64,000 nucleotides of DNA, from contig JAWODN010000076.1 in NCBI GenBank assembly GCA_046483285.1, positions 16,369 to 80,368 of the forward strand, given 5' to 3'. The stretch comes from Candidatus Aminicenantes bacterium. Its GTDB lineage: Bacteria; Acidobacteriota; Aminicenantia; Aminicenantales; Aminicenantaceae. Under the pieces are notes generated by a model that was not told the origin of the DNA, did no database searches, and saw only the letters and a list, made by a program, of their open reading frames with translations. Positions 3,635 through 57,700 of the stretch are shown in pieces (positions within the stretch are counted from its first letter, which is position 1; each line of letters starts with the position of its first letter). The translations under genes and the position numbers were made by a program.

Positions 3635-4746
3635 GCGTTCCTTTGAAAATATTTTCCCGGATATTGACTGACTATCCCCCGCAGCTCCAGGCTTAAAAGC
3701 AAAGAAAGCAGCTTGGATGATTCCATGCTGGTTTTAGCCGCAATCTCATCAATATGGGTGACATCATCCAAAGCGAGCGCGCTTAAAAGAGCCTGTTCAT
3801 CCGGACTCAAAGAAGGGATGCCCTGGCCGGAGCGGGGTTTATACCGAAACACTTTTTTCTTCACCTCGGGGGGGAGCTCTTCAGCAACATCTTCCCAATC
3901 CGAAACCAGCTTGGCCCCGTTTTTGATGAGCCAGTTGCTGCCCCAGCTGTTCGCGGAAGTGATGTTGCCGGGAACCGCCATGACTTCCCGGTTTTGTTCA
4001 AGAGCCAGACGGGCCGAAATCAAGGAGCCGCTTTTTTGGGCCGCTTCAATCACCACCACAGCCAATGACAAACCGCTGATCAGACGATTCCGCAGGGGGA
4101 AATGAAATCCCAGAGGAGCCGCATGAAAGGAAAATTCTGTGATCACGGCTCCATCTTCCTTTATTTTATTGAACAATTTCATATTCTCACGCGGGTAAAT
4201 GTTTCCCAACCCGGATCCCAACACAGCCACAGTGCGGCCTTTTTCCAATGCGCCCCAATGCGCCAGAGAATCAATGCCCCGGGCCATCCCGCTTACGATC
4301 ACCAGGCCCTTCTCCGCCAGATCCCGGGCCAGTTTTTTCACCACACCCCGCCCGTAAGGAGACGGTTTCCTCGATCCGACTAAAGAGACGGATGGCTCCT
4401 CCAGCACATGTCTTCTCCCGGCTCCGTAAAGAACACAGGGAGGGTCGTAAATCTCCCTCAAATATGCCGGATAATCAGAATCCGCAATAGTTAATATGAA
4501 ATAATCATTTGCGAGCGCACTGTCAAGTTCTTTTTTCGCTTTTTCAAGATTACCCGGAGAGCGAAGCTCTAAAACGGACTCTTCCTCAAGTCCCCATCCG
4601 CTGATTTGCTTGACCGGCAGATCAAACAGCTCTTCGATTCGATCGATATTATTAATGACCCGGCGGCTTGACACCAAGTCATCCGCAAATATGCGGTTGA
4701 AGGCTATCCAATGGATTAAGCTTTCCCGTTGCGTCACTCTTTGCAA
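3631..4746 (-). CDS. dprA: DNA-processing protein DprA (Smf)
   Basis: 371 aa. Contains 'VSGMARGIDSLAHWGALEKGRTVAVLGSGL..YPREN' and a C-terminal winged helix. Overlaps the topA start by 4 nt. Confidence 0.9.
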   Translation of the reverse strand: MQRVTQRESLIHWIAFNRIFADDLVSSRRVINNIDRIEELFDLPVKQISGWGLEEESVLELRSPGNLEKAKKELDSALANDYFILTIADSDYPAYLREIYDPPCVLYGAGRRHVLEEPSVSLVGSRKPSPYGRGVVKKLARDLAEKGLVIVSGMARGIDSLAHWGALEKGRTVAVLGSGLGNIYPRENMKLFNKIKEDGAVITEFSFHAAPLGFHFPLRNRLISGLSLAVVVIEAAQKSGSLISARLALEQNREVMAVPGNITSANSWGSNWLIKNGAKLVSDWEDVAEELPPEVKKKVFRYKPRSGQGIPSLSPDEQALLSALALDDVTHIDEIAAKTSMESSKLLSLLLSLELRGIVSQYPGKYFQRNA

Positions 4747-5606
4747 AAGCGGGAAGGAATGGCGAATACCGGAAATTGGCTAAGGGAAATGACCTTTTCC
4801 GTGGTGCTTCCCAGAAAAAACCGCTCCAGTTTTCTAGGTCCGCAGGTTGAAATCACCACCAGATCAAAGCTGTGACGTTGAACATAATCCACAATTCCGT
4901 CCGCAGCGGTTATGGACCTGGTCACATATTCGGAAACCCGCACCTTTTCCTTCCTGTCCTTTCTTTTTTTAAGCTTCTCCTGCAGCGATGCCATCATTTT
5001 CTCCAAAGTGTCTTCAGAAAACTGATAATCGTGCAGTTCCATGACATGCAGCAGATTCAATTCCGCTCCCAATCCTTCTGCAAGTTCGAAGGCGTAATCC
5101 CTTTCCACCTCTTCATGCTCCGAGAAATCCGTGGGAACCAGAATCTTCTTTATGTCGTGCTTCGGGGATTTTTTCTTGGTGATCAGCATGGGAACCGGAG
5201 AGCTTCTGAGAACCCTGGTGGTGACGCTGCCGATAAATAATTTTTCCAAGGCGGACATTCCATGTTTCCCCAAAACGATCAAATCAACATTTTCTTCTTC
5301 CGCGGTTTCAACAATTTTTTCATAGGGCTTGCCTTCTTTAACTATAGACGTAAAAGACAGATTTTTTTTCTCTCTTATTTTCTCAAATTCTTGTTCAGCG
5401 GTCTGTTTGATTTCGCCCACCCTGCGGACCAGATCTCCTTTCACGGACATGGCCGTATTATACAGAGCCTGAGAAAAATCCGGCACCACATGCAAGGCCA
5501 GTAAATCCGCATTAAAAGCACGGGCAAACATATCCGCGTAATACAGGGCTTCCCCGGCTTCTTCCGAAAAATCTGTCGCCCATAAAATCTTTTTAAGAAA
5601 AGGCAT
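4734..5606 (-). CDS. Universal stress protein, tandem UspA domains
   Basis: ORF 4734..5621. The second ATG (5606) is preceded by GGAGGAG. Two Usp repeats, 'ILWATDFSEEA..' and 'ILVPTDFSEHE..', each ending in 'GS(V/T)T..V'. Confidence 0.8.
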   Translation of the reverse strand: MPFLKKILWATDFSEEAGEALYYADMFARAFNADLLALHVVPDFSQALYNTAMSVKGDLVRRVGEIKQTAEQEFEKIREKKNLSFTSIVKEGKPYEKIVETAEEENVDLIVLGKHGMSALEKLFIGSVTTRVLRSSPVPMLITKKKSPKHDIKKILVPTDFSEHEEVERDYAFELAEGLGAELNLLHVMELHDYQFSEDTLEKMMASLQEKLKKRKDRKEKVRVSEYVTRSITAADGIVDYVQRHSFDLVVISTCGPRKLERFFLGSTTEKVISLSQFPVFAIPSRFCKE

Positions 5607-5629
5607 TTCTTTCTCCTCCATGTTTCAGT

Positions 5630-5770
5630 CTGACCTATACATAAAAAAATGGCGATGGTCTTGTCAATCTTTTGTTAACCGCGATATTCATCCTTTCTAT
5701 AATAAACACAAGCGTCACGTCTTTCTTTGCTGGTATTTCACTTATAATCGCCATTTTTTTACCCTTCGGG
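5630..5770 (+). repeat. Repeat family A, copy A4 (diverged interior)
   Basis: Left end 'ctgacctatacat-aaaaaaatggcgat' (arm 5643-5656). Right end 'atcgccattttttt-acccttcggg' (arm 5746-5759). The arms are perfect reverse complements with starts 103 bp apart. Confidence 0.7.
5638..5667 (-). promoter_or_regulatory. Predicted sigma70-type promoter inside repeat A4, firing into usp
   Basis: On the minus strand: TTGACA (5667-5662), 18 nt, TATGTA (5643-5638). The usp SD/ATG lies about 25-30 nt downstream. Confidence 0.45.
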
Positions 5771-5780
5771 AGACATGCCA

Positions 5781-5883
5781 CTTTGTCATGGCGAGGCTTG
5801 CGCCAGCAAGCCGTGGCAATCCCTTTCTGCCGCTTTGTCATGGCGAGCGGCCGAAGGCCGCGTGGCCATCCCTTTCTGCCTCG
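5781..5883 (+). repeat. Two tandem 51-52-nt REP-like hairpin units
   Basis: Unit 1 (5781-5832) is 'ctttgtcatggcgag-ggcttgcgccagcaagcc-gtggcaatccctttctgcc'. Unit 2 (5833-5883) is 'ctttgtcatggcgag-cggccgaaggccg-cgtggccatccctttctgcc'. Flanks are conserved, and the internal hairpin differs in sequence but stays a hairpin. Confidence 0.8.
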
Positions 5884-5920
5884 TGAAAGCGGAACCCACC
5901 GCCCAGACGAGGCAGTCAGG

Positions 5921-6000
5921 GATCCCTCGGTGCTTCGCACCGCGGGATGACAATGAATTATCGAATTGTCGTCATCTGCGGCAATCCCGGCCCGTGAATA
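5921..6000. repeat. GC-rich module E/B ('gatccctcg..gggatgac', hairpin, 'ctgcggcaatcccggcccgtgaata')
   Basis: Near-identical module order recurs at 32603-32672 and 57516-57594. The tail also recurs at 20905-20935. Confidence 0.7.
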
Positions 6001-6128
6001 AGCCAGGATTGAAGGCTAAATCTTCAAGGTCGCTTCAGCCACACCTGAATTCCATAAAGCCGTATTAACCTCATTCCGCTAATTAATCATAGCTCAAGTG
6101 AAATCCATATTCAAAGTCCTCGCCAGTC

Positions 6129-6285
6129 GCGGCACGGCTGGGAGGGGGCCCCCGCCCGCAGGCAGCGAGGACGGGGGAGGAAGCCGTGCCCGCTCAGCCT
6201 TCATATGGGCCGGCTTATCCATCATCCCGCCCCCATGGCCGCAGTTCAAAAGTGACACTCATCGTTTGTGTTGTATTATACACAT
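6129..6285. repeat. GC-rich module D plus flank F
   Basis: 'ccgtgcccgctcagccttcatatgggccggcttatccatcatcccgcccccatggcc' is the reverse complement of 21140-21195. The following 'gcagttcaaaagt..tcatcgtttgtgttgtattatac' matches 21294-21335 in direct orientation. Confidence 0.7.
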
Positions 6286-6698
6286 GATGAACTCATAAAA
6301 AAATGGGACTCGCGGGCCGCTCATCATTCAAGTTAGAAAATGACAAGTCATTGTCATCCTGAGGAGCGCAGCAACGTAAGGATCTTGTGCTGCTTCGCCG
6401 GATCGAGAATGTCAGTGTCTTCATATAAGAACCGTCACCTCCCTGGTAACAATGGCACAGCAAGCCGGCTAAAAAGACCGAATAGACTGAGAAGACTTAG
6501 ATAGACCCAGATGGACCAGATAGACTAAACAAACGCAACAAACGCAATGAACGCAATAAACGCGACCGCAGCGGGCATAGCGAGGCACTCTAAGACTCCC
6601 GTCGCTCCGCTCCGGGAATGACATGGGGATCATTGTCATCATTCGTGGTGTGCTTACACACATGATGAATTCATAAAAAAAATGAGGTTTGTCATCCG
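6286..6698. repeat. Rest of the gene-free mosaic spacer, made of short modules
   Basis: 'catgatgaa(c/t)tcataaaaaaa' occurs at 6283-6303 and 6661-6682. 'gtcatcctgaggagcgcagcaacgtaaggatc' is at 6353-6385 and its inverted relative at 6594-6622. An inverted, degenerate C-like 'gtctatctgg' stretch is at 6478-6535. Confidence 0.5.
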
Positions 6699-8009
6699 TC
6701 ATCCCGTGAAAAGAATGGTTCCGGACGAGGTGAAAACCCCGGCAACCGCCCCGGTAACCAAGCAGGCTAAGGTCGCGGCCAGAAGCGCACGCAGCCCCAG
6801 GCGGGAAAGGTCGCGGGTTCTTTCCGGAGCCAACGCTCCCACTCCTCCTATAAAAATAGCCAGGGAGGCGACATGAGCGAACCCGCACAAGGCATAGGAA
6901 GCGATGACAGCCGAGCGGGGATGCTCCAGCTCTCCTGCCGCCAAATAATCCGCCAGATGCTGATAGGCGACCACTTCAGTCGCCACCGTGCGCTCTCCCA
7001 GCAACCGGGCGATTTCAAGGGCGTCCGAAGGAGGGACCCCCAGTATCAGGGCAAAGGGATAAAAGACATATCCCAATATAGCCTGGATAGACCAGGAGAA
7101 GCGGATCCCCAAAATCTGATTCAAATATCCGCCCATCCATCCCAAAATTAAATCCAGCAAAGCCAAAAGCCCTAAAAAGGCGATAAGAAGGGAGATAATC
7201 CCACCCAAAAGCCGAAGTCCGCTGTTCGCTCCGCTTATTATGGCGGCGATAAGGTTGTCCTCTCTCTCATAGTGAGGCTTGACATCCAATCCCAGGGTTT
7301 TGGGGGTCCCGCTTTCCGGGACGATAAGCTTGGACATCATGACCGCGGCGGGAGCGGAAAGCAGGGAAGCGGACACCAAATGGCCGGCTATGGTGGGAAG
7401 CTGCCCCTGCAGCTGCATGACATATAAGGCCAGCACGGTTGAAGCGATCGTCCCCATTCCCGCGGCCAGCACAGTGGTCAATTCAGACCGGGTCATGTGC
7501 TTGAGATGAGGTTTTACCACCAGAGCGGATTCCACGCCTACGAATATATTGCTGGAGGCGCTGAGCGATTCCGCTCCGCTGATGCGCATCAATCGGGTGA
7601 ACACATATGAAAATCCGCGGATGATTCGCGGCATGATTTTCAAATGATACAATGCCGACACCAGGGCGGCAAAAAAAATGACCGTCGGCAGCGCTTGAAA
7701 CGCTAAAAAATAACCCAAGGACGTTTCTCCGGCTTCATTGGTGGTGCCGGGAGGAAGCGCCAAGCGCCCAAATATAAACTTCGTTCCGGCCGTGGCGCTG
7801 TCCAGGACCTGGACCACCATCCGGTTGACAAACAAAAAAAACTTGGCTCCAGCCGGGATAATGAAAATGAAAAGCGCTAAGGCAAGCTGCAGCGTGATTC
7901 CCCAGAAAACGACCCGCCAATTGACATTTTTCCGGTCAGAGGAACACAGCCAGGCGAAGCCGGCGATAACCAAGATTCCCAAAAAGCTGATAACATTGTA
8001 AATGCTCAC
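6699..8009 (-). CDS. nupC: NupC/CNT-family nucleoside permease
   Basis: 436 aa polytopic membrane protein. The N-terminus 'FLGILVIAGFAWLCSSDRKNVNWRVVFWGITLQLALALFIF' and overall layout match concentrative nucleoside transporters. Confidence 0.8.
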   Translation of the reverse strand: MSIYNVISFLGILVIAGFAWLCSSDRKNVNWRVVFWGITLQLALALFIFIIPAGAKFFLFVNRMVVQVLDSATAGTKFIFGRLALPPGTTNEAGETSLGYFLAFQALPTVIFFAALVSALYHLKIMPRIIRGFSYVFTRLMRISGAESLSASSNIFVGVESALVVKPHLKHMTRSELTTVLAAGMGTIASTVLALYVMQLQGQLPTIAGHLVSASLLSAPAAVMMSKLIVPESGTPKTLGLDVKPHYEREDNLIAAIISGANSGLRLLGGIISLLIAFLGLLALLDLILGWMGGYLNQILGIRFSWSIQAILGYVFYPFALILGVPPSDALEIARLLGERTVATEVVAYQHLADYLAAGELEHPRSAVIASYALCGFAHVASLAIFIGGVGALAPERTRDLSRLGLRALLAATLACLVTGAVAGVFTSSGTILFTG

Positions 8010-8662: not shown

Positions 8663-9451
8663 TCACTTTCGAATGATATCCCTGTATGTATCGAACAGAT
8701 CCCTCAGCTGGTCTTCTGTGACAATATATCCGCTCATATAAATGGACAGATTGGACCTCTGGGAATCGTTGGTCTTCAAAAGAATATATTCCCTCAGCAG
8801 CCCGGTGGAATTCCCCGGCTGCAGCTGGATTTCCACGGACTTTGATTTCCCGGCCGGAATTTTCACAGGACCCTGGATTTCATCCCTGCCGCTCAAAAAC
8901 AACGCGTTTTTGTGAGACAGATTGACTTCCAATTCCAGCTCGCCGGTATTCCTGATGACGGCGTCCGCGGCTAATTTTTCCCCCTCCAGAACCAGTCCTA
9001 AATCAATGCTGTACCGGTCCAAACCGATGCGGGGGCGCGGAGGCACATCAATGGAAGCACTCACCGCCAACTGCACATGGGAACGCCGGGGGTCATTGGA
9101 ATGAACGTACACATATTTCGTCACATTCCCCGAGTAGCCGCGGGTGTTGAAGGTGACTTTTATTTCTCCCTTCTCCCCGGGAGAAAGTTTTTTTTGAGAA
9201 ACCAGGGCGGCCGCGCATCCGCATGAGGTCCGCACACGCTGAATCTCAAGGACGGCATCTCCTGTATTCTTGAAGGAGAACACATGAGTGACAACCTCAC
9301 CCTCTTTTATCCGGCCGAAATCCCATTTTTCCTGACTGAACGTGATTTCAGGTCCTTGGGCGGCGGCCGGACCCACGGAAAGAAAGGCTAAAAAACATAT
9401 CCAGCCCGGAAAAAAGATTCCTTTGTTCATGGCTATCCATCTCCTTTTCAA
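8663..9451 (-). CDS. Secreted protein with two DUF1573 domains
   Basis: Signal peptide, then 'WDFGRIKEGEVVTHVFSFKNTGDAVLEIQRVRTSCGCAAA', the DUF1573 hallmark. A second Ig-like repeat follows. The start may be ATG 9430. Confidence 0.8.
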   Translation of the reverse strand: MKRRWIAMNKGIFFPGWICFLAFLSVGPAAAQGPEITFSQEKWDFGRIKEGEVVTHVFSFKNTGDAVLEIQRVRTSCGCAAALVSQKKLSPGEKGEIKVTFNTRGYSGNVTKYVYVHSNDPRRSHVQLAVSASIDVPPRPRIGLDRYSIDLGLVLEGEKLAADAVIRNTGELELEVNLSHKNALFLSGRDEIQGPVKIPAGKSKSVEIQLQPGNSTGLLREYILLKTNDSQRSNLSIYMSGYIVTEDQLRDLFDTYRDIIRK

Positions 9452-9507
9452 TTCCTGACTGCAGCCAGGTCCGGTTTGCTCATTTGAAACGGTTCCCTTG
9501 CGGCATG

Positions 9508-19212: not shown

Positions 19213-20682
19213 TCAGAGATCGAGTTCCAGTTGATTGAGCCGAGCCCGGCCGCGCTCTTTTTCAATTTTCTTTAAAACATCGGGGGTGATGTCGCCGGTG
19301 GGATATTCTCCGCTGAAGCACGCCCCGCAGAAATCCGTTAAATCCTTGTTCTCCAGATGCACCGCTTTTTTCAGTGCATCCAAGGACTGATAAATCACTT
19401 TATCCGCTTTTATCTTTTTCGCCACCTGCCCGGGATCCGAATCCCGGGCGATAAATTCACTGACCGTCTGCATATCAATTCCATAAACACAAGGAAACCG
19501 AAGCGGGGGGGAGTAGGAGGCAAAAAAAACCTTTTCAGCTCCGCATTCCCGCACCATTTCTATAATAGAGCGGGACGTGTTTCCCCGAACAATGCTGTCA
19601 TCCACCACTAAAACCTTTTTATCTTTAAATTCAGCGGCAATGGGATTGAGCTTCTGGCGGATAGAACTTTTCCGGGATTGATCCGACGGCATGATGAAGG
19701 TTCTCCCGATATAGCGGTTTTTCACCAAGGCTTCCCGGTAGGGGAGATTGAGTTTGCGGGCGATTTCAACAGCGGCGTCGCGTGCGGAATCCGGGACCGG
19801 AACCACCACGTCGGGCTGAATGTTTTGTTTTTTGATTTCCTCCGCAAGAAACCGGCCCAAATTAATCCGGCATTTGTACACATTAACATCATCAATAAAT
19901 GAATCCGGTCTCGCAAAATAGACCCATTCGAATAAACAGGGGGTTCTCCGTCCATGGGTCAGCACCTTGGAGTGAAAACGCCTCTCCTCATCGATAAATA
20001 TAACTTCCCCCGGCTTGATGTCCTTGATGGCGGAAAAATCCATCATGTTCAAGCTCACGCTTTCCGAGGCTATGGCATATTCCGGAATCATTCCTTTCCT
20101 TCGGGTTCCGTAAACCAGCGGCTTGATTCCGAAAGGATCCCGGAAAGCAATCATTCCCTGTTCCGCGATATAGGCGACCACCGAGTAGCTGCCCCTGACT
20201 TTTTTGAAAACATTCCGGACGGCTTCATAGATATCTTCCGGTTTCAGCGGGTGCGAGTCCTTCATGGCCAATTCTTGTGCGAAAATGTTCAAAATCACCT
20301 CGACATCGTTGTCAGAATTCACAATCCGGCGGTATTTATCAAAAAGGAGAGTTTTCAATTCCTGGTAATTTACCACATTTCCGTTATGAGCCATGATGAT
20401 TCCGTGCGGCGAATTGACGAAAAACGGCTGGGCGTCTTCACCGCCTCCGCCGCCTATAGTGGGGTAGCGGGTATGGCCGATCCCAATCTTTCCTTTGAGG
20501 CGGCGGGCGTTTTCAGCGCTAAATATATCATTGACCAGCCCGTTTCCTTTTTTGGTGTGGAACCGCCCGTCATAAGTGATCATGCCCGCCGCATCCTGGC
20601 CCCGGTGCTGAATGGCCAAAATTCCCTGATAAAGATCCTTGAAGACCTCTTCGTTCGCGATCAATCCGATAACTCCGCACAT
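19213..20682 (-). CDS. purF: Amidophosphoribosyltransferase
   Basis: 489 aa. Starts 'MCGVIGL' (Ntn Cys); PRTase motif 'VLVVDDSIVRGNT'. Confidence 0.95.
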   Translation of the reverse strand: MCGVIGLIANEEVFKDLYQGILAIQHRGQDAAGMITYDGRFHTKKGNGLVNDIFSAENARRLKGKIGIGHTRYPTIGGGGGEDAQPFFVNSPHGIIMAHNGNVVNYQELKTLLFDKYRRIVNSDNDVEVILNIFAQELAMKDSHPLKPEDIYEAVRNVFKKVRGSYSVVAYIAEQGMIAFRDPFGIKPLVYGTRRKGMIPEYAIASESVSLNMMDFSAIKDIKPGEVIFIDEERRFHSKVLTHGRRTPCLFEWVYFARPDSFIDDVNVYKCRINLGRFLAEEIKKQNIQPDVVVPVPDSARDAAVEIARKLNLPYREALVKNRYIGRTFIMPSDQSRKSSIRQKLNPIAAEFKDKKVLVVDDSIVRGNTSRSIIEMVRECGAEKVFFASYSPPLRFPCVYGIDMQTVSEFIARDSDPGQVAKKIKADKVIYQSLDALKKAVHLENKDLTDFCGACFSGEYPTGDITPDVLKKIEKERGRARLNQLELDL

Positions 20683-20691
20683 AATTATATA

Positions 20692-20840
20692 CCTGACCTA
20701 TTCATAAAAAAATTGCGATTTTTTTGCAATCCCTTTTTTATCAGCGATTAACATGATTTTTATAAAAAGTTCAAATGGAAAGTTTTTCATTTTCATATTT
20801 TTATTTTAATCGCCATTTTTTTACCCTTCGGGCGGGCCGG
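20692..20840 (+). repeat. Repeat family A, copy A1
   Basis: 'cctgacctattcat-aaaaaaattgcgat...atcgccattttttt-acccttcgggcgggccgg'. Arms are at 20706-20719 and 20809-20822. Near-identical to 57220-57370. Confidence 0.8.
20701..20729 (-). promoter_or_regulatory. Predicted promoter inside A1, firing into purF
   Basis: On the minus strand: TTGCAA (20729-20724), 17 nt, TATGAA (20706-20701). The purF ATG is at 20682, and a TATATAAT also lies immediately 5' of that ATG. Confidence 0.4.
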
Positions 20841-20947
20841 ATCTCACCGCATCTGCCGGGTTGCGGCTCGTCGCAGTGAAGTGCCACGGCTTCCTCGCCG
20901 CAACCCGGCATCTGCAGCAATCCCGGCCCGTGAATAGGTCAGGCAAG
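20841..20947. repeat. GC-rich module B with a 12-bp hairpin
   Basis: 'gccgggttgcgg' (20854-20865) pairs with 'ccgcaacccggc' (20899-20910). The tail 'ctgcagcaatcccggcccgtgaataggtcagg' is shared with 5975-6005 and 57570-57600. Confidence 0.6.
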
Positions 20948-21056
20948 CCTGACCTATTAGTTCGAAGATAACAAAAATAGTCCCTTTCGTCTATCTGGTC
21001 TATCTGGTTTGAAAAGAGCGAGAAAGGCGAGTCGTGCGAGAAAAGAAGAAGACCTC
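20948..21056 (+). repeat. Repeat family C, copy C1
   Basis: 'cctgacctattagttcgaagataacaaaaatagtccctttcgtctatctggtctatctgg..gagcgagaaaggcgag..gaagacctct'. Matches 34394-34482 directly and 28316-28387 inverted. Confidence 0.75.
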
Positions 21057-21139: not shown

Positions 21140-21294
21140 GGCCATGGGGGCGGGATGATGGATAAGCCGGCCCGTATGAAGGCTGAGCGGGCACGGTTCC
21201 TCTCCACAGGAGAGGAGAGCGAAGCCGGAATCGGAGCGGATGTCCTCGCTGGGGACATCCGCGTGGCGGCGATCCATCTCCCGCTCCCATGGCC
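21140..21294. repeat. Module D2: ~155-nt multi-stem palindromic GC-rich element
   Basis: Outer arms are 'ggccatgggggcgggatgatggat' (21140-) and 'atccatctcccgctcccatggcc' (-21294). Inner perfect 10-bp stem 'gcggatgtcc/ggacatccgc' (21236-21262). Inner 7-bp stem 'cctctcc/ggagagg' (~21198-21217). Confidence 0.7.
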
Positions 21295-21334
21295 GCAGTT
21301 CACAAGTAATTTTCATCGTTCGTGTTCTATTATA

Positions 21335-21408
21335 CCTGACCTATTCATAAAAAATGGCGATGATTTTGTCAATCTTCCGGGCGGAGCATTTTTGATTGTC
21401 ATTTTTTT
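21335..21408 (+). repeat. Repeat family A, internally deleted copy A5
   Basis: 'cctgacctattcataaaaaatggcgatgattttgtcaatctt..' resembles the A4 variant. The distal arm is degenerate ('tgtcattttttt'). Confidence 0.6.
21344..21372 (-). promoter_or_regulatory. Predicted promoter in A5, firing into module D2
   Basis: On the minus strand: TTGACA (21372-21367), 17 nt, TATGAA (21349-21344). A TATAAT (21334-21329) follows. No ORF lies downstream for ~650 nt. Confidence 0.45.
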
Positions 21409-21422
21409 AAAAACAGACTGGA

Positions 21423-25988: not shown

Positions 25989-28133
25989 TTAAAATTCCGC
26001 GCCTCCGAGAAAATCGGTGGTTTTTCCTATATTCCCCAAGGCTAAAGTGAACCCGAACTGAATTTCAGGTTTGTCCCGGAAATAAAAAACCCGCAAATCT
26101 GCCGCAAAATCCAGACACTGGTAATGATAGACCAAAGAAGCCGCCGAGTATAAAATTTCGCGCGTCTGGATATTGATATCAATATTCCCCCGGGTTTCCA
26201 GGGACAATGCGGGAATTTTCAATCCTCCCGAAAAACCGACCTGGTGGCGGGACGCCAGAGTGCCGGGCCTGTAAGGATTGATGCTTTTGTACCAGTTCGC
26301 CCGAAAAAACCAGTTGTCTTCAGGCCGGCCTAAAGAGGCCCCCATCCGCATTCTGGCAAAGGTTTTGAAATAAGGATTGAAGGCGGCCGACACGTCGACA
26401 CTGTACTGGCGGGACGGATAAAAACGCAGGTATCCGCTGACATCTGAAAATGCCGGGACTTCTCCGTCCACCTGGTACCGCTGCAACGGGCCGCTTTCCG
26501 GGTCAAAATAGTAGTTCTGACTGATCCCCAAAGTGAATATTTCCCGGGCGGAATTTTGCTCCTTGACTAATATCCGGTTGGTCAAACCATAGCTGAGATA
26601 ATGATTTAAATAAAAAAAACGGGTGGTGATGATGCGGTCCGGAGACGAAACCGGGCTTTCATACCTATAAGTCAAATTGGGTTCAATAATATGCTTCCAC
26701 CTGGGAAGACCGTCCGAATCAAAAAAAACCCTATAAAACACAGGCCCTGTGAACTCGGATTCATACACCAGGTTCTGGGTGAACAGCGGCTCAGGAACCA
26801 CCTCGTTTCGGTCCAAGGCGTAACTCTGAAAATAATAAGTGAGCTGAGAGGAAAGATTGCTGTTGATGGTCAGCCAGGGAAGAGCATTGAAAGGGAAATT
26901 CAACCTGGGGCTGAACGACAGGTTCTGCGCGCTTCTTTGAGTGCCGGCCTCATACGCTGTATCCCAACCATATTCCCATCTCTGGAAACTGGAGGAGAAG
27001 GACAAGTACAAAGGGGTGAACACTTTTATTTTGGAAGACGTGAAACTGATCTCAGGCAGGCTTTTCCTAATGACGGACCGGTCTCTCTCAGTGAAATAGG
27101 TTTCGAATCGCGATGCCCGCATATTAAAATTGAAATAGGACCAGGAGCGGCTCACATAAACTTGAGAGCTGCGGTTAGCCGCCACCGCCCGGTAAAAATT
27201 ATTGTCAAACTCTCTTAAAAAATCAAAGGAGCTCTGGTAATCCACATCCGCCACCAGCCGGAAATCATAAGGAAGGGGCTGCTGATGCTGAAAACGGAGA
27301 ATATAGGCGGTGCTGGTGTCATACAACTGGGCTTCTTCCTCCCTGAACCGGAAATAGAACAGATTCAACTCTCCGGCCATGTCCCCCGGCAGGATATAGC
27401 GGTGCTGCAGCCCTCCCCCCAAACCTTTATGGGAATAGTAATCAACATTGAAGGTGGCGTCCATGTTCCGCCTAATGTCCCAATAAAAGCTCTGGGACAA
27501 TTGGAACCCTTTGCGTCCGTTGTATCCCAGCTTGGGGATCAGAAATCCAGTTGAACGCTGAGTCTCGAGGGGATATCTCATATATGGAAGGTAAAAAACC
27601 GGAATTTTTTTTATGTAGAAAACCGAATTCCACATGGCCACATAATCTTCTTTTTTGAAATCGGCCCGGCCGAATTGAAATTTCCAACGGGGAACGGTTT
27701 GGGTGCACGAGGTGATCCAGGCATCTCTCAAATGGAAAAGACTGGCGCTTTCCCTTTCCACGGATCCGGCCTCATATGTGATGGAAGGCTGAACCAGGCC
27801 GTGAACCTCTTTCATCTCACCCCGGGATGAATCAAGGTTGAACATCACCTCTTCCATGCTGATCACTTCATTGGGAAGATGGATATGGACGCCCCCGGCG
27901 GCTACAATGTCTTTAGTTTCAGTATTCAGTTCAATCCAGTCGGCGAACACCTTGATGTCGCGGTAATGTATTTCCACGCTTCCCGAAGCTGTGATCCGGT
28001 TCCCGACCCTCTCTTTGGTGTGGGCGATGATTTCCACTTGGGAGTCCTGGAATGCCGCCGCCTCAGGTAAAGAAAGAAAAATCCAGAATCCCAGAAGGAA
28101 AAACAGGGGATATCGCCTTTGACATATGCACAT
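25989..28133 (-). CDS. lptD: LPS-assembly outer-membrane protein LptD (OstA)
   Basis: ORF to 28151; the second ATG (28133) has GGAG 5 nt upstream. N-terminal OstA motif 'RITASGSVEIHYRDIKVFADWIELNTETKDIVAAGGVHI', then a large Y/F-rich barrel ending 'FLGGAEF'. Confidence 0.85.
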   Translation of the reverse strand: MCICQRRYPLFFLLGFWIFLSLPEAAAFQDSQVEIIAHTKERVGNRITASGSVEIHYRDIKVFADWIELNTETKDIVAAGGVHIHLPNEVISMEEVMFNLDSSRGEMKEVHGLVQPSITYEAGSVERESASLFHLRDAWITSCTQTVPRWKFQFGRADFKKEDYVAMWNSVFYIKKIPVFYLPYMRYPLETQRSTGFLIPKLGYNGRKGFQLSQSFYWDIRRNMDATFNVDYYSHKGLGGGLQHRYILPGDMAGELNLFYFRFREEEAQLYDTSTAYILRFQHQQPLPYDFRLVADVDYQSSFDFLREFDNNFYRAVAANRSSQVYVSRSWSYFNFNMRASRFETYFTERDRSVIRKSLPEISFTSSKIKVFTPLYLSFSSSFQRWEYGWDTAYEAGTQRSAQNLSFSPRLNFPFNALPWLTINSNLSSQLTYYFQSYALDRNEVVPEPLFTQNLVYESEFTGPVFYRVFFDSDGLPRWKHIIEPNLTYRYESPVSSPDRIITTRFFYLNHYLSYGLTNRILVKEQNSAREIFTLGISQNYYFDPESGPLQRYQVDGEVPAFSDVSGYLRFYPSRQYSVDVSAAFNPYFKTFARMRMGASLGRPEDNWFFRANWYKSINPYRPGTLASRHQVGFSGGLKIPALSLETRGNIDINIQTREILYSAASLVYHYQCLDFAADLRVFYFRDKPEIQFGFTLALGNIGKTTDFLGGAEF

Positions 28134-28179
28134 TTTTCTCCAATGTAGCATAAGGTTTCTTCTTTAATCAACTCAATAC

Positions 28180-28315
28180 CCTGACCTGATCAATTCATAA
28201 AAAAATTGCGATATTTTTGCAATCTCTTTTTTATCAGCGATAAGCATGGTTTTTAGTGAAAGATCAAATGGAACATTTTTCATTTTTTTATTGTTTTTTT
28301 AATCGCAATTTTATT
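28180..28315 (+). repeat. Repeat family A, copy A3
   Basis: 'ccctgacctgatcaattcat-aaaaaaattgcgat...atcgcaatttt'. Arms are at 28199-28212 and 28302-28312. Confidence 0.75.
28194..28222 (-). promoter_or_regulatory. Predicted promoter inside A3, firing into lptD
   Basis: On the minus strand: TTGCAA (28222-28217), 17 nt, TATGAA (28199-28194). Confidence 0.4.
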
Positions 28316-28387
28316 AGAGGTCTTCTGCTTTTCTCGCCTTCTTCAGCCCAGATAGATCAAATGGACTGTTTTTGTTATTAAGTTAGG
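28316..28387 (-). repeat. Repeat family C, inverted copy C3
   Basis: The reverse complement reads 'cctaacttaataacaaaaacagtccatttgatctatctgggctgaagaaggcgagaaaagcagaagacctct'. Confidence 0.7.
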
Positions 28388-28389
28388 GG

Positions 28390-28418
28390 TTGCCAACCGG
28401 ACTCCTTCCATCCATAAT
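28390..28418 (+). promoter_or_regulatory. Predicted promoter for atpZ-I-B-E
   Basis: TTGCCA (28390-28395), 17 nt, CATAAT (28413-28418). It lies 37 nt upstream of atpZ. Confidence 0.4.
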
Positions 28419-32516: not shown

Positions 32517-32602
32517 ATCTCCTCCAGATGTGTTCACATCATAACCTTTTGAAATCACTCCGGCTTTTCGGTTCATCGCACGTCCTGACCGAAGCACCTG
32601 CA

Positions 32603-32672
32603 GATCCCTCGTCGTTTCACTCCCCGGGACGACATTGAATTAAGGAATGTCGTGGTCTGCGGCAATCCCGGC
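32603..32672. repeat. Module E/B inside the predicted trxA 5' leader
   Basis: 'gatccctcgtcgtttcactccccgggacgac-attgaattaaggaatgtcgt-ggtctgcggcaatcccggcc'. Homologous to 57516-57585 and 5921-5990. Confidence 0.7.
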
Positions 32673-34393: not shown

Positions 34394-34482
34394 CCTGACC
34401 TATTGATACGAAAATAACAAAAATAATCCATTTCGTCTATCTTATCTATCCGGCCTGAAGAGAGCGAGAAAGGCGAGGCGAG
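34394..34482 (+). repeat. Repeat family C, copy C2, followed by a D-like fragment
   Basis: 'cctgacctattgatacgaaaataacaaaaataatccatttcgtctatcttatctatccgg..gagcgagaaaggcgaggcgag', then 'gcggccatgggagcgg' (34494-34509). Confidence 0.7.
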
Positions 34483-37604: not shown

Positions 37605-37642
37605 AGCAAGCTCCTTACGCAGGTTTGCCTGAACATGTCAGG

Positions 37643-48509: not shown

Positions 48510-48811
48510 TTTTATACTCCCGGCTTTTCGGCCCTGAATAATAATTCAGTGCTTTACCTGTCCCTTAGAAATTGTTTCCCCATGGCAAAACAGAAGGACA
48601 CATGCCGCGCCTCCTGCAATAGCAGCCGCCTCCCTGCCGGGGAATAACTCGAGTTTATATTAATAGTTTAGCTGTTTTCTGTCAATAGAAAACCAAATTT
48701 CCCGCGGGGGGGCTGCCGCAGGGATGATAATCCAGGCTAAGCGGCATGAACCCAAAGGAACAATTTCAGCTGTGCCAAAGATGGAGAGGCTTTCCCAACA
48801 GCTTAAAAAAA

Positions 48812-55124: not shown

Positions 55125-57203
55125 TCATACAGACTGATTCGCCGGTTTCAAACTCATGCGGGCCAATTCGGGATTAACCGAAAGCAGGATGACTTCCAAT
55201 CGATCCCCCAGCTCAAATGTTTTTCCGGTACGGCGTCCCCTCAGGGTTTTTTCACTCTTGCGAAAATAGTAATCATGGTCAAGATCCTGATACTGAATGA
55301 TTCCTGATACAAAATAGTCATCCAACTCAACCACCAGCCCGGATCCGGTAATATCAACAATAAATCCGGCCAGCGTATCTCCGACCTTTGATTTGAGCAA
55401 GCGGTATATCCTCCAATTGATCAATTCTTTTTCCGCTTCATCCGCCCGTCTCTCTGTCTCTGAACATTGCGCCGCGGTTTCCGTCAGGCCGTTGTCTTTG
55501 CTTTTTTTGTCTTGAAGAACGAATTTCAGAATCCTGTGGACGACAAGATCCGAGTACCGGCGTATCGGAGAGGTGAAATGGGTGTAATGACTTTTTCCCA
55601 ATCCGTAATGTCCTTTGTTTTCCACGGAATAGATGGCCAGCCGAAGGCTTCTCAGCACCTGGATGGTGATAAACTTTTCTTCTTCCCGGCCTTCAAAATG
55701 GTCCATAACACGTTGAAGATCGCGGCGGGTTATGGCATCGGGAGGGGGAAGCGAAATTCCAAAATGCTTCAGAATTTCCCTGAGTTTATTCAAATCATTC
55801 GGATCCGGCGAGGGATGAATCCGGTAAATAAACGGCTGCCGGCTGCCGTCTAAATATTCAGCCACCGTTTGATTGGCTGCCAGCATAAATTCTTCAATCA
55901 ATTGATGGGCCTCATTCTGAAAAAAAGGCACCACCTTGTGCAGAGCCCCCTTTCGATAAATCAACTCGGGCTGGGGATGATCGAAATCCATGCTGCCGGA
56001 AGACATTCGATTTTGCCGCAGCCGGGAGGCCAATTCACGCATGTCCAGCAAATCGGAAACCAAAGAAGAATAATTCCGCCGTTCTTTTTTATCTCCTTGG
56101 AATATTTTATAAACCGATGAATACGTCATCCTGGCCGCCGTTTGAATAATTGAAGGAAAAAATTCCCGGCTCTGCAGGCGCCCCTCTCTGTCAAATTCCA
56201 TCATCACCGACATGGTTAATTTTTCCTCTTCCGGTCTCAGGCTGCATATCTCATTGGAAAGCTTCTCCTGGAGCATCGGTATCACGGCATCCGGGAAATA
56301 GACGCTGGTGCCTCGGTCAAAAGCTTGCCTGTCCAACGGGGTCCCCGGCCGCACATAATGGGAAACATCCGCAATATGAACTCCCAGCGAAAAACCGCCG
56401 TTTTTACGGCGCTTTATACTGACCGCATCATCAAAATCGCGCGCGCTTTCTCCGTCAATGGTCATGGTGTCCCAATTGCGCAAATCACGGCGGCCGTACC
56501 TTTCTTTTTCTTGGATGGTTCCGGGAATGGAATGGACTTGATCATAAACGTCTTCCGGGAAATCCCGGGGAAGCCCATGCTTCCGGATTATGACTTCACT
56601 GTCAACCCCGGGGTCGTCGGGAAAACCGAGCACCTCAGTGATCCGCTGACGCTCCCGGTCCACTTCAACGATCATTCCGGGATTCAGTTCCTTTCCGCCT
56701 GTTTCGACAGGGAGTTCTTCCAGAGAGGGACTCTCAAACGGAAGATAAGATGAGCGTCCCTTGAATTCCTTATATATTCCCAATACGGTTTTTTTCCGTT
56801 TCTTGACAATCCTGATGATCCGCCCTTCCGGTTTTTCTCCCTTTTTTAAATAAACAACCTCAACCACATCTCCCTGAATCGCGCCTCCGGAAAAACGTCC
56901 GGGAATAAAGATGTCCCGAAGACCGGTTTTTTTGGGTTTGACAAATCCGAATCCTTTAAGAACAGTGATTAATTCACCGCGGATGGTGCGCTTATCCCCT
57001 TGCAACACAAACTTTTTTTTGTTTTGCGAAATGATGCCTTTTTTAAGAAGTTCCCTCAAACTTTTTTTCAGTTCGGCTTTTTCTTTCGGGCGCACATGCA
57101 GTTTGGCCGCTAATTTGGCGTAGCTCAATCCTTCCCGGTGCTTTTGCAGCAGATGCAGTATGTGGTCAATCATGATTTTTCTCTTTCTTGGTGTATTATA
57201 CAC
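55125..57203 (-). CDS. rnr: Ribonuclease R
   Basis: 692 aa. N-terminal HTH/cold-shock-like domains, RNB motifs ('DFDDAVS', 'HYGL..YTHFTSPIRRY') and a C-terminal S1 domain. An alternative start at ATG 57173 ('MIDHILHLL') is possible. Confidence 0.9.
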   Translation of the reverse strand: MYNTPRKRKIMIDHILHLLQKHREGLSYAKLAAKLHVRPKEKAELKKSLRELLKKGIISQNKKKFVLQGDKRTIRGELITVLKGFGFVKPKKTGLRDIFIPGRFSGGAIQGDVVEVVYLKKGEKPEGRIIRIVKKRKKTVLGIYKEFKGRSSYLPFESPSLEELPVETGGKELNPGMIVEVDRERQRITEVLGFPDDPGVDSEVIIRKHGLPRDFPEDVYDQVHSIPGTIQEKERYGRRDLRNWDTMTIDGESARDFDDAVSIKRRKNGGFSLGVHIADVSHYVRPGTPLDRQAFDRGTSVYFPDAVIPMLQEKLSNEICSLRPEEEKLTMSVMMEFDREGRLQSREFFPSIIQTAARMTYSSVYKIFQGDKKERRNYSSLVSDLLDMRELASRLRQNRMSSGSMDFDHPQPELIYRKGALHKVVPFFQNEAHQLIEEFMLAANQTVAEYLDGSRQPFIYRIHPSPDPNDLNKLREILKHFGISLPPPDAITRRDLQRVMDHFEGREEEKFITIQVLRSLRLAIYSVENKGHYGLGKSHYTHFTSPIRRYSDLVVHRILKFVLQDKKSKDNGLTETAAQCSETERRADEAEKELINWRIYRLLKSKVGDTLAGFIVDITGSGLVVELDDYFVSGIIQYQDLDHDYYFRKSEKTLRGRRTGKTFELGDRLEVILLSVNPELARMSLKPANQSV

Positions 57204-57219
57204 ATGATGGATTACTTAG

Positions 57220-57370
57220 CCTGAATTATTCATAAAAAAATTGCGATGTTTTTGCAATCCCTTTTTTATCAGAGATTAACATGATTTTTATTGAAAGTTC
57301 AAATAGAAAGTTTTTCATTTTCATATTTTTATTTTAATCGCAATTTTTTTACCCTTCGGGCGGGCCGACT
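57220..57370 (+). repeat. Repeat family A, copy A2
   Basis: 'cctgaattattcat-aaaaaaattgcgat..atcgcaattttttt-acccttcgggcgggccg'. Arms at 57234-57247 and 57337-57350 are perfect complements. Confidence 0.8.
57229..57257 (-). promoter_or_regulatory. Predicted promoter inside A2, firing into rnr
   Basis: On the minus strand: TTGCAA (57257-57252), 17 nt, TATGAA (57234-57229). A second TATAAT lies at 57200-57195. Confidence 0.4.
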
Positions 57371-57700
57371 CTCACCGCATCTGCTTTGTTGCAGGGCATT
57401 CGCAGTGAAGTGACGACCTTTCATTTATTTAATGTCATCCTGAGCGGAGCGAAGGATCCCGGACTGCTTCGAATTGGCAATTCATTGTCCATACGGCCTG
57501 GCGAAAGCACTCACAGATCCCTCGTCGCTCCGCTCCTCGGGACGACATTGAATTAAAGAATTGTCGTCGTCTGCGGCAATCTCGACCCGTGAATAATTCA
57601 GGCTAAGCGATTCATCCATATTACAGGCAGGTCAGCCCGCTTGTCTCGTCTTTATTGCTTTTCCCGCTTTAAGCTTTTCTCGCTTGTATTTTTCAGCCGG
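57371..57700. repeat. GC-rich mosaic (modules B, E+, E-, hairpin, B tail, C-like)
   Basis: 'gtcatcctgagcggagcgaaggatc' (57434-57458) faces inverted 'gatccctcgtcgctccgctcctcgggacgac' (57516-57546). Hairpin 'gacgaca..tgtcgtc' is at 57541-57568. 'ctgcggcaatctcgacccgtgaata' ends at 57594. Confidence 0.65.

Follow-up and report, generated by a model that had tools for sequence, protein, structure and literature searches.

A dispersed AT-rich cassette upstream of purF, lptD, rnr and usp in a Candidatus Aminicenantes contig is probably one half of a non-autonomous transposable element

Repeat copies and genes in the window

We analysed a window of 64,000 nucleotides from a Candidatus Aminicenantes bacterium (assembly GCA_046483285.1, contig JAWODN010000076.1, positions 16,369 to 80,368), in which a first-pass annotation had described five copies, A1 to A5, of a repeat called family A. 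The repeat had been presented as an AT-rich cassette of about 150 bp with two inverted arms and an outward promoter, placed 5' of purF, lptD, rnr and usp, and it had been interpreted as a portable promoter/operator. Here we describe these copies, the larger element to which they belong and its relatives in other genomes, and we argue that it is probably a transposable element of the miniature inverted-repeat kind (MITE).

All five copies were recovered at or near the places where they had been reported, and the paired arms of the window copies are reverse complements, as had been claimed. The arm AAAAAAATKGCGAT has 9 matches with at most one mismatch in the window, against 0.42 expected, and none of 100 shuffles reached 9. 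Pfam bore out the identities of the downstream genes, all of them on the minus strand: purF (19213-20682, with its ATG at 20682), the LptD gene (25989-28151), the RNase R gene rnr (55125-57203, the ATG being likely at 57173) and usp, the gene of a tandem Usp protein (4734-5621). The exact sequence of the window purF protein had no match on record. The distance from the proximal arm to the start codon of the adjacent minus-strand gene is around 22-66 nt; about 20-60 nt had first been proposed. However, the cassette of about 150 bp is not the whole repeat unit, because it is nested inside larger inverted repeats at 20692-20943, 57220-57602 and 5629-6007.

A1 shows the family-consensus layout. 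The full composite element (252 bp, 20692-20943, minus strand) lies directly 5' of purF, and its outer inverted repeats match at 13/13 positions. On the minus strand it comprises the proximal outer terminal inverted repeat CCTGACCTATTCA (20692-20704, plus-strand letters), the proximal arm TAAAAAAATTGCGAT (20705-20719), putatively the inner part of the terminal repeat, an AT-rich interior of 89 nt (20720-20808), the distal arm ATCGCCATTTTTTTA (20809-20823), a mini hairpin CCCTTCGGG (20824-20832), a GC-rich long hairpin module (20833-20930) and the distal outer terminal inverted repeat TGAATAGGTCAGG (20931-20943, plus-strand letters); the mini hairpin and the module were assigned from the alignment and covariation counts. 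The hexamers first proposed for this copy are a candidate -10 TATGAA at 20701-20706 and a candidate -35 TTGCAA at 20724-20729, which the sigma-70 scan left uncalled. A1 is a mixed copy, since its proximal arm is of the T/A type and its distal arm of the G/C type. Its flanks are TATA and CAAG, that is, the target-site duplication is not preserved.

The composite element A2 (383 bp, 57220-57602, minus strand) lies 5' of the RNase R gene, with outer repeats at 57220-57232 and 57590-57602, arms at 57233-57247 and 57337-57351 and a mini hairpin at 57352-57360. Its GC module (57361-57589) is split by a nested, unrelated palindromic repeat, and its inverted repeat reaches 27 nt (57206-57232 and 57590-57616). 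The A3 cassette (28186-28316, minus strand), 5' of lptD, has a proximal outer repeat (28186-28198) and arms at 28198-28212 and 28302-28316, with one mismatch in the distal arm; it carries neither the GC module nor the distal outer repeat. A4 (5629-6007, minus strand), 5' of usp, is a divergent composite element with a proximal repeat TCTGACCTATACA (5629-5641), arms at 5642-5656 and 5747-5761, a mini hairpin (5762-5770), a GC-rich part with internal duplications (5771-5994) and a distal repeat-like end (5995-6007); in its interior, the nearest family member is just 61% identical to it. Finally, A5 (21335-21410, minus strand) is a copy with an internal deletion, close to the stop of the epimerase gene (21423) on its 3' side, with an outer repeat (21335-21347), an arm (21348-21361) and a degenerate distal arm (21396-21410). 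Foreign repeats are nested within A2 and A4. As duplications have been lost, repeats are nested, half of A3 is gone and A5 is deleted, A1 to A5 appear to be old, partly decayed insertions, and purF, lptD, rnr and usp may or may not be driven by them today.

Family size, hosts and arm spacing

We scanned one genome per species for relatives of the cassette, requiring both arms and allowing a free gap of 75-105 nt between them. We found at least 96 loci; family counts given here are among the matches listed, and L numbers (L025, L059, etc.) label the scan loci. Nearly all of them come from around 15 metagenome-assembled genomes (MAGs) labelled Candidatus Aminicenantes or Acidobacteriota, or from MAGs labelled 'uncultured Eubacteriales' that are evidently related to these. 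The relatives of the window LptD carry the names Aminicenantes or Acidobacteriota, and several element loci share synteny with the window, their proteins being 60-77% identical. An nhmmer profile added 13 copies in the same DNA, which have one-sided arm mutations or 5' truncations, and as a negative control it found zero copies in 553 kb of unrelated purF loci (80 metagenome purF loci of mixed phyla, 69-75% identity, GC 30-67%).

Typical copies were also seen on contigs of about 3 kb in two unrelated bins, L038 (a MAG labelled Desulfobacteraceae) and L046 (a MAG labelled Methanosarcinales). Copies in bins of unrelated taxa, including many 'uncultured Eubacteriales' MAGs, are probably due to mis-binning or mislabelling. 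The locus L008 (Peribacteria) was discarded as a chance match to the search pattern.

Regarding the arm spacing, an offset of exactly 103 bp had been claimed for all four full copies. This held for A1, A2 and A3, whereas in A4 it is 104 bp (5643/5747). Across 98 copies, the gap between the arms was 84 nt in 2, 88 in 3, 89 in 19, 90 in 61, 91 in 9 and 92 in 4, so that, start to start, the arms are 98-106 bp apart and most often 104 (the mode). Therefore, the spacing is narrow despite the 75-105 nt allowed in the scan, although it is not constant, and two copies depart from the mode by 6 bp, around half a helical turn.

Architecture of the whole element

In the full element, a 13-nt outer repeat CCTGGATTATTCA is followed by a GC-rich hairpin of 109 nt, then by a mini hairpin and the A cassette, in which two arms enclose around 90 nt of AT-rich sequence, and last by the outer repeat TGAATAGGTCAGG. 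Read toward the downstream gene, the consensus of the family is TAAAAAAATGGCGATTAAAATnAAAAATAAAAACAAGAAAAAnGTTnnAATnATCATTCTTGAAAAAATCTTGTATATCGCTGAAAAnAAAnTAATAATAAAAACATCGCCATTTTTTTA, then TGAATAGGTCAGG. The element is 148-255 bp long, around 250 bp in its commonest form and longer with nested inserts. A second outer repeat CCTGGATTATTCA was present upstream of the distal arm in 65 of 99 copies, at a distance of 107-110 nt in about 50 of them, and the outer 13-nt repeats match each other at 10-13 of 13 positions in 54 of 63 copies. The module between the left outer repeat and the distal arm is made of a conserved GC-rich sequence, a mini hairpin of 2-3 bp and TA. It has a short variant of 49-50 nt, which is a deletion between two GCAGATGC direct repeats, and a longer variant of about 245 nt, which sits inside the same basal stem. 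In symmetric copies without the module, the outer repeat and the arm are contiguous and make up one terminal inverted repeat of 28 nt.

No open reading frame (ORF) is conserved in the element, and all the overlapping ORFs are spurious. A mini-ORF, ATG AAT AGG TCA GGT TAA, running from the proximal repeat into the target duplication, was rejected as a by-product of the palindrome and of the TAA/TAG in YTAR.

Evidence for transposition

Perfect 4-bp direct duplications flank 31 of 63 copies, where 5.4 are expected and the maximum in 20,000 shuffles was 15. Their consensus is YTAR, the perfect cases being TTAA (10), CTAA (7), CTAG (3), TTAG (1) and others. We considered whether the YTAR flanks might be a mere extension of the inverted repeat; this was excluded, because 17 duplications are non-palindromic (CTAA, TAAA, TTAT, ATAG and others) and there were 0 inverted-only matches.

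Orthologous sites were found both empty and filled. In two genomes whose proteins are around 90% identical, the empty site L025 reads ...ACTATAC-TTAA-TTCAATTATGAGC and the filled site L059 reads ...ACTATAC-TTAA-[251 bp]-TTAA-TTTAATTATGAGC. In the window the genes sucC and sucD overlap, in L042 they lie side by side, and in L075 they are parted by a truncated and a full copy. At the xseA-xseB junction the element is present in L067 and the site is empty in the window. Altogether, among 34 orthologous intergenic pairs the element was in one genome only in 5 cases and in both in 0. Its orientation can also differ within the same intergenic region (L026 vs L033; L049 vs L095; window A3 vs L177). 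In the last of these pairs, L177, which comes from a relative of the window, holds a copy of the window subfamily that is intact over 251 bp (9253-9503), with TTGCGAT arms, 13/13 ends and a TTAG duplication; this copy, in the lptD/atp intergenic region, faces the atp operon, while A3 of the window faces lptD. Interiors were 100% identical at separate loci of a single genome, and many copies are found at contig ends.

The epimerase-purF junction was compared in three close relatives (77-80% LptD identity, collinear with the window from about position 17 kb to 37 kb). In these the spacer is 22, 23 and 77 bp long, vs 740 bp in the window, where it contains A5, other repeats and A1. Therefore, A1 and A5 are lineage-specific insertions at an operon junction and not an ancestral purF promoter.

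Given the terminal inverted repeats, the direct duplications, the empty and filled orthologous sites and the dispersed copies, we consider that repeat family A is probably the AT-rich half of a non-autonomous MITE, which is abundant in Aminicenantes-type (Acidobacteriota) genomes. The insertion sequence (IS) IS5 is known for 4-bp YTAR target duplications (PMC10359306). As such duplications are an IS5 hallmark, the likely mover is an IS5-like DDE transposase, which would be encoded elsewhere and have an IS5-like target preference. The parent IS would show two inverted CCTGGATTATTCATAAAAAAATGGCGAT copies, 1-2.5 kb apart, around a DDE transposase gene. Pairs of outer ends 0.6-3.5 kb apart held housekeeping genes or a lipoprotein and no transposase, no multi-copy protein was found among the element loci, and a tblastn search of these loci with an approximate IS5 InsH query gave no match.

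Regarding what lies between element ends, at L030 a gene of 637 aa is flanked by inverted copies (5295-5410 and 7377-7492), both with their proximal ends facing the gene, and housekeeping genes (enolase, TrkH, sulfatase) were seen between element ends at several other loci. The TTAA target of the L059 insertion (L025 2826-2880 and the L059 flanks) lies within one arm of a 21-nt inverted repeat, GGGGGACACTATACTTAATTC … GAATTAAGTATAGTGTCCCCC, which has the start codon of the downstream gene inside its loop.

What the arms are

The arms had been said to covary. Their sole variable paired position is G-C in 90 copies, T-A in 7 and mixed in 1 (A1), and the T-A type is confined to one subfamily, found in the window, CAYRTV and CAZDJZ. 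Thus, the two arms do differ together in one subfamily, but this is one position and one inherited double change. The other arm mutations, found in copies added by nhmmer, are uncompensated. A joint change of the arms is equally expected for a protein site that is present twice and for a hairpin.

The most economical reading of the arms would make them the inner part of the terminal repeats, since they are contiguous with the outer repeats in the symmetric copies and related repeat families have CCTG....ATTCATAAAA ends in common. They could be the part that the transposase binds, kept invariant in lineages where the element still transposes; this would explain why the arms stay constant while the interior diverges and why both change together in one subfamily.

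Promoter and orientation

The description of a dispersed, portable cassette stood up well. The copies are intergenic and lie just 5' of start codons, which often begin 2-40 nt past the outer repeat. They are not randomly oriented either: 68 are on the same strand as the downstream gene and 23 on the opposite one, and in tandem gene contexts 31 are aligned vs 6 anti-aligned (p=4e-5).

Of 95 unique copies, 55 have AATAAT or GATAAT ending 6 nt ahead of the proximal arm, with TTG(T/C)AT 17 nt upstream of it; this gives TTGyAT-17-rATAAT, the motif of the main family. With this geometry, transcription is predicted to begin at roughly the first nucleotide of the proximal arm. The window subfamily has GATTGC in place of rATAAT, and its candidate is TTGCAA or TTGACA, 17-18 nt and then TATGAA or TATGTA. 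In one further subfamily (L002, L010, L037 and others) a -10 cannot be recognised at the expected position. The outward -35/-10 pair that had been proposed is therefore only partly upheld: the hexamers are present, but TATGAA and TATGTA are without the final T, and a standard sigma-70 scan made no call in the A1 or A2 regions. The partial copies found with nhmmer retain the promoter-proximal end. Judging from the orientation bias and these motifs, an outward sigma-70-type promoter in the element is plausible. From a co-oriented insertion the next gene could then receive a promoter, a leader rich in U and, just ahead of its start codon, a stretch rich in AGG.

The GC-rich hairpin module and its alternative cargo

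The GC module starts right after ATTCA and, together with the mini hairpin, ends right before TAAAAAAAT; with these borders, it is a hairpin complete in itself that has been inserted into the left terminal repeat. When 52 distinct copies were aligned, 31 pairs were 95.8% paired and 14 of the 31 had changed on both sides; none of 500 shuffles reached the observed values, and slid controls were far lower. The RNAalifold energy is -40.3 on the gene-sense strand vs -13.2 on the antisense strand, the mean minimum free energy is -51.0 vs -36.5 kcal/mol, and there are 224 G-U pairs vs 18 A-C, so the fold is on the gene-sense strand only. This strand-specific, covarying hairpin is a candidate new structured RNA family carried by the MITE. 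No Rfam family was assigned to the element either at the gathering thresholds or at E<=1, and the window matched one tRNA only. Its role might be, as a guess, to cap the 3' ends of upstream transcripts.

The module was seen at 20833-20930 and as two halves within 57361-57589 in the window, at 6388-6501 of L067 and at 50 other loci, and it has tandem G-A mismatches within a GCAGAUGC repeat. In at least 9 copies the same basal stem, CGAGTCGA/TCGGCTCG, holds another cargo, around 245 nt long (…GCGACATTGAAGATTTAGCC…GACCCACGGACGGGGGGAGTT…GAATGGCGTTAAAAATCT…); examples are L010 (3226-3480), L036, L039, L055, L094 and L014, where it lies upstream of the distal arm. Segments of this cargo are complementary to each other at long range, and its sole Rfam match is at chance level.

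It is conceivable, though improbable, that the whole is a mobile unit of terminator/insulator plus promoter, or that an undescribed functional RNA is carried as the GC-rich cargo. In the former case, the GC hairpin or the 245-nt cargo would cap the upstream transcript, the internal promoter would restart transcription, and the arms would form a hairpin with a U tract that depends on read-through. If this were true, transposition would divide operons anew and so create other transcription units throughout a whole candidate phylum.

Alternative explanations

Several observations weigh against a MITE that carries a working promoter. On the promoter side, around 25% of the copies are unable to promote a protein gene and about 10 lie between convergent genes. 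The hexamers are moderate matches (8-9/12) and are no better preserved in gene-facing copies (intact in 32 of 68) than in those that face the 3' end of a gene (10 of 23); the failure of the sigma-70 scan to call the window copies belongs here too. Furthermore, rnr has an extended -10 of its own, TGTGTATAAT, at 57197-57206 (minus strand), outside the element, and this may be the real rnr promoter. On the transposition side, no autonomous element or transposase with the ends of the element was found in 1.4 Mb of locus DNA, and A1 to A4 have no preserved target duplications. Moreover, in the commonest form the distal arm is 111 bp inside the left tip, and calling it a terminal repeat there would be an extrapolation from the symmetric form.

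Another reading is a purely selfish MITE without any promoter, in which the hexamers are chance occurrences in AT-rich DNA and the orientation bias comes from the harm of the opposite orientation (GC hairpin, antisense) or from strand-biased insertion. The equal integrity of the hexamers in facing and non-facing copies, the lack of a promoter call in the window and the subfamily without a recognisable -10 all speak for it, and insertions inside operons (sucC-sucD, epimerase-purF) would be tolerable if read-through continues. However, many copies persist 2-40 nt before a start codon even though around 250 bp and a stable hairpin separate the gene from any older promoter, the partial copies retain the promoter-proximal part, and in 55 of the 95 copies the distance between rATAAT and the arm is the same; thus, we hold this explanation to be somewhat unlikely. 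An RNA insulator or terminator, which may coexist with the MITE as the reason for arm conservation, is in our view doubtful. In this model the arms pair in read-through RNA (A7-UGGCGAU ... AUCGCCA-U7) and bring about termination or RNase III-like cleavage; transcripts begun inside the cassette hold the proximal arm only and would escape, and the sense-strand GC hairpin caps the upstream mRNA. The arms are indeed predicted to pair in read-through RNA with a probability of around 0.95, the A-tract/U-tract symmetry is like that of bidirectional terminators, the adjoining GC module is evidently selected as a gene-sense single-strand fold, and among the few mutated arms three still form G-U pairs on the sense strand. 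RNase III acts on Correia repeats, and SPRITE elements are terminator-like (PMC10969869). Nevertheless, a loop of 90 nt is far beyond known intrinsic terminators and the terminator scan gave no call, the pairing is alike on either strand and so tells nothing about strand, in the cassette RNAalifold recovered the arms only, with no conserved interior structure, plain mismatches occur elsewhere (A1 G-A, A3 U-U, L033 and L004 A-G), and the GC hairpin is not followed by a U tract.

The operator model of the first-pass annotation, in which the arms are identical half-sites around ten helical turns apart, one of them within the promoter spacer, and a regulator bound to both represses a regulon by DNA looping, seems very unlikely to us. 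It would agree with the narrow arm spacing (a mode of 104 bp is about 9.9 turns), with arms that are near-invariant while the interior diverges and with the change of both arms in one subfamily. However, the terminal-repeat origin already accounts for the arms, and a transposase site would be equally expected to show the joint change. Spacings of 98 and 102-106 bp occur, A-tracts in the interior show no phasing at 10-10.5 bp (the power peaks near 12.5 bp), and in the main family the proximal arm is at about +1 to +15, outside the promoter spacer. A regulon of the downstream genes is unlikely because insertions differ at every orthologous comparison, with the 5 one-genome and 0 joint insertions in 34 regions described above, and because around a quarter of the copies face the 3' end of a gene; the downstream genes are also functionally unrelated.

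Comparison with known elements

The first-pass annotation knew of no described element like this one. This has to be corrected, because a MITE with a promoter is a known kind of element and the Correia elements (CREE/NEMIS) of Neisseria are well described (PMC10969869). Like them, the Aminicenantes element is small and non-coding, with long terminal inverted repeats and an AT-rich interior, has hundreds of intergenic copies, often directly upstream of genes, with candidate outward sigma-70-like promoters, such promoters having been documented in Correia elements and other MITEs, and its repeats can pair in mRNA (PMC10969869). In contrast, the Aminicenantes element duplicates 4 bp (YTAR), lives in another host phylum and has a strand-specific GC hairpin of 109 nt within the left terminal repeat. 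Correia elements duplicate TA, and their 26-nt repeat is presumably unrelated to that of the Aminicenantes element. As the target duplication and the sequence both differ, the element falls outside the Correia family.

With IS5-family elements and the MITEs derived from them it shares the 4-bp YTAR duplication and the terminal inverted repeats, but no transposase gene or full-length IS with these ends was found in the 1.4 Mb; the target motif is what points to membership of an IS5-derived group. Thus, the closest analogue in behaviour is Correia and in transposition chemistry it is IS5. The REP/BIME and ERIC repeats of enterobacteria and the SPRITE, BOX and RUP repeats of pneumococcus are likewise dispersed and intergenic, form hairpins in transcripts and are clustered and nested, as are the repeats between the genes of the window. 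However, REPs are 20-40 nt long and have no target duplications, whereas the Aminicenantes element combines an AT-rich, promoter-like cassette with transposon-type ends and duplications. In looping operators (lac O1/O3, gal OE/OI) two identical sites around 100 bp apart also surround a promoter, but in the Aminicenantes element these sites belong to a mobile element as its inverted terminal repeats, and the copies form no regulon. Our literature search found no mention of MITEs in Aminicenantes nor of the element sequence, so the family appears to be undescribed.

These uncultured bacteria have long intergenic regions filled with repeats, which the element explains, and it also accounts for many contig breaks in the MAG assemblies of its hosts. 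A density of around one copy per 12-13 kb extrapolates to a few hundred copies per genome. Some insertions hit tight operon junctions (sucC-sucD, epimerase-purF) and may rewire transcription. The element does not reveal a new regulatory principle. Annotators gain a model for masking it and a candidate portable promoter for a phylum without genetic tools.

Other repeats in the same regions

Three other repeat families were seen in the same intergenic regions of the window: a palindromic module of the GTCATCCTGAGCGGAGCGAAGGATC type (5898-5966, 32580-32648 and 57430-57561), which is the repeat nested in the GC hairpin of A2; CCTGACCTATT…AACAAAAATAG…TCTATCTGG (20948-21034, 34394-34480 and about 28330-28400); and CCCATGGCCGCAGTTCA…GTATTATAC (6225-6281 and 21279-21335). 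The extended -10 TGTGTATAAT, which lies between the RNase R start codon and A2, is part of a repeated motif, TTCATCATGTGTATAATAC, and this motif recurs at 6270-6283, adjoining a degenerate arm (6290-6309). A further family shares the outer end and the A-run CCTGGACTATTCATAAAATATGTATGCAT with the element and has a different interior (L063 at 509 and 772, L094 at 2000, L051 at 3456), which suggests that several MITE families use the same transposase.

We also found solo palindromes that consist of the two outer repeat tips alone, e.g. CCTGACATGTTCAGG and CCTGAATAGTTCAGG. They occur in the window (37628-37642 and about 48533-48549) and in L033 (6007-6021), L013 (5520-5534), L047 (5556-5570) and L076 (868-898), at sites where other genomes have the full element or other inserts. 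Each could be a footprint, the remains of a collapsed element or an ancestral palindrome that received the cassette.

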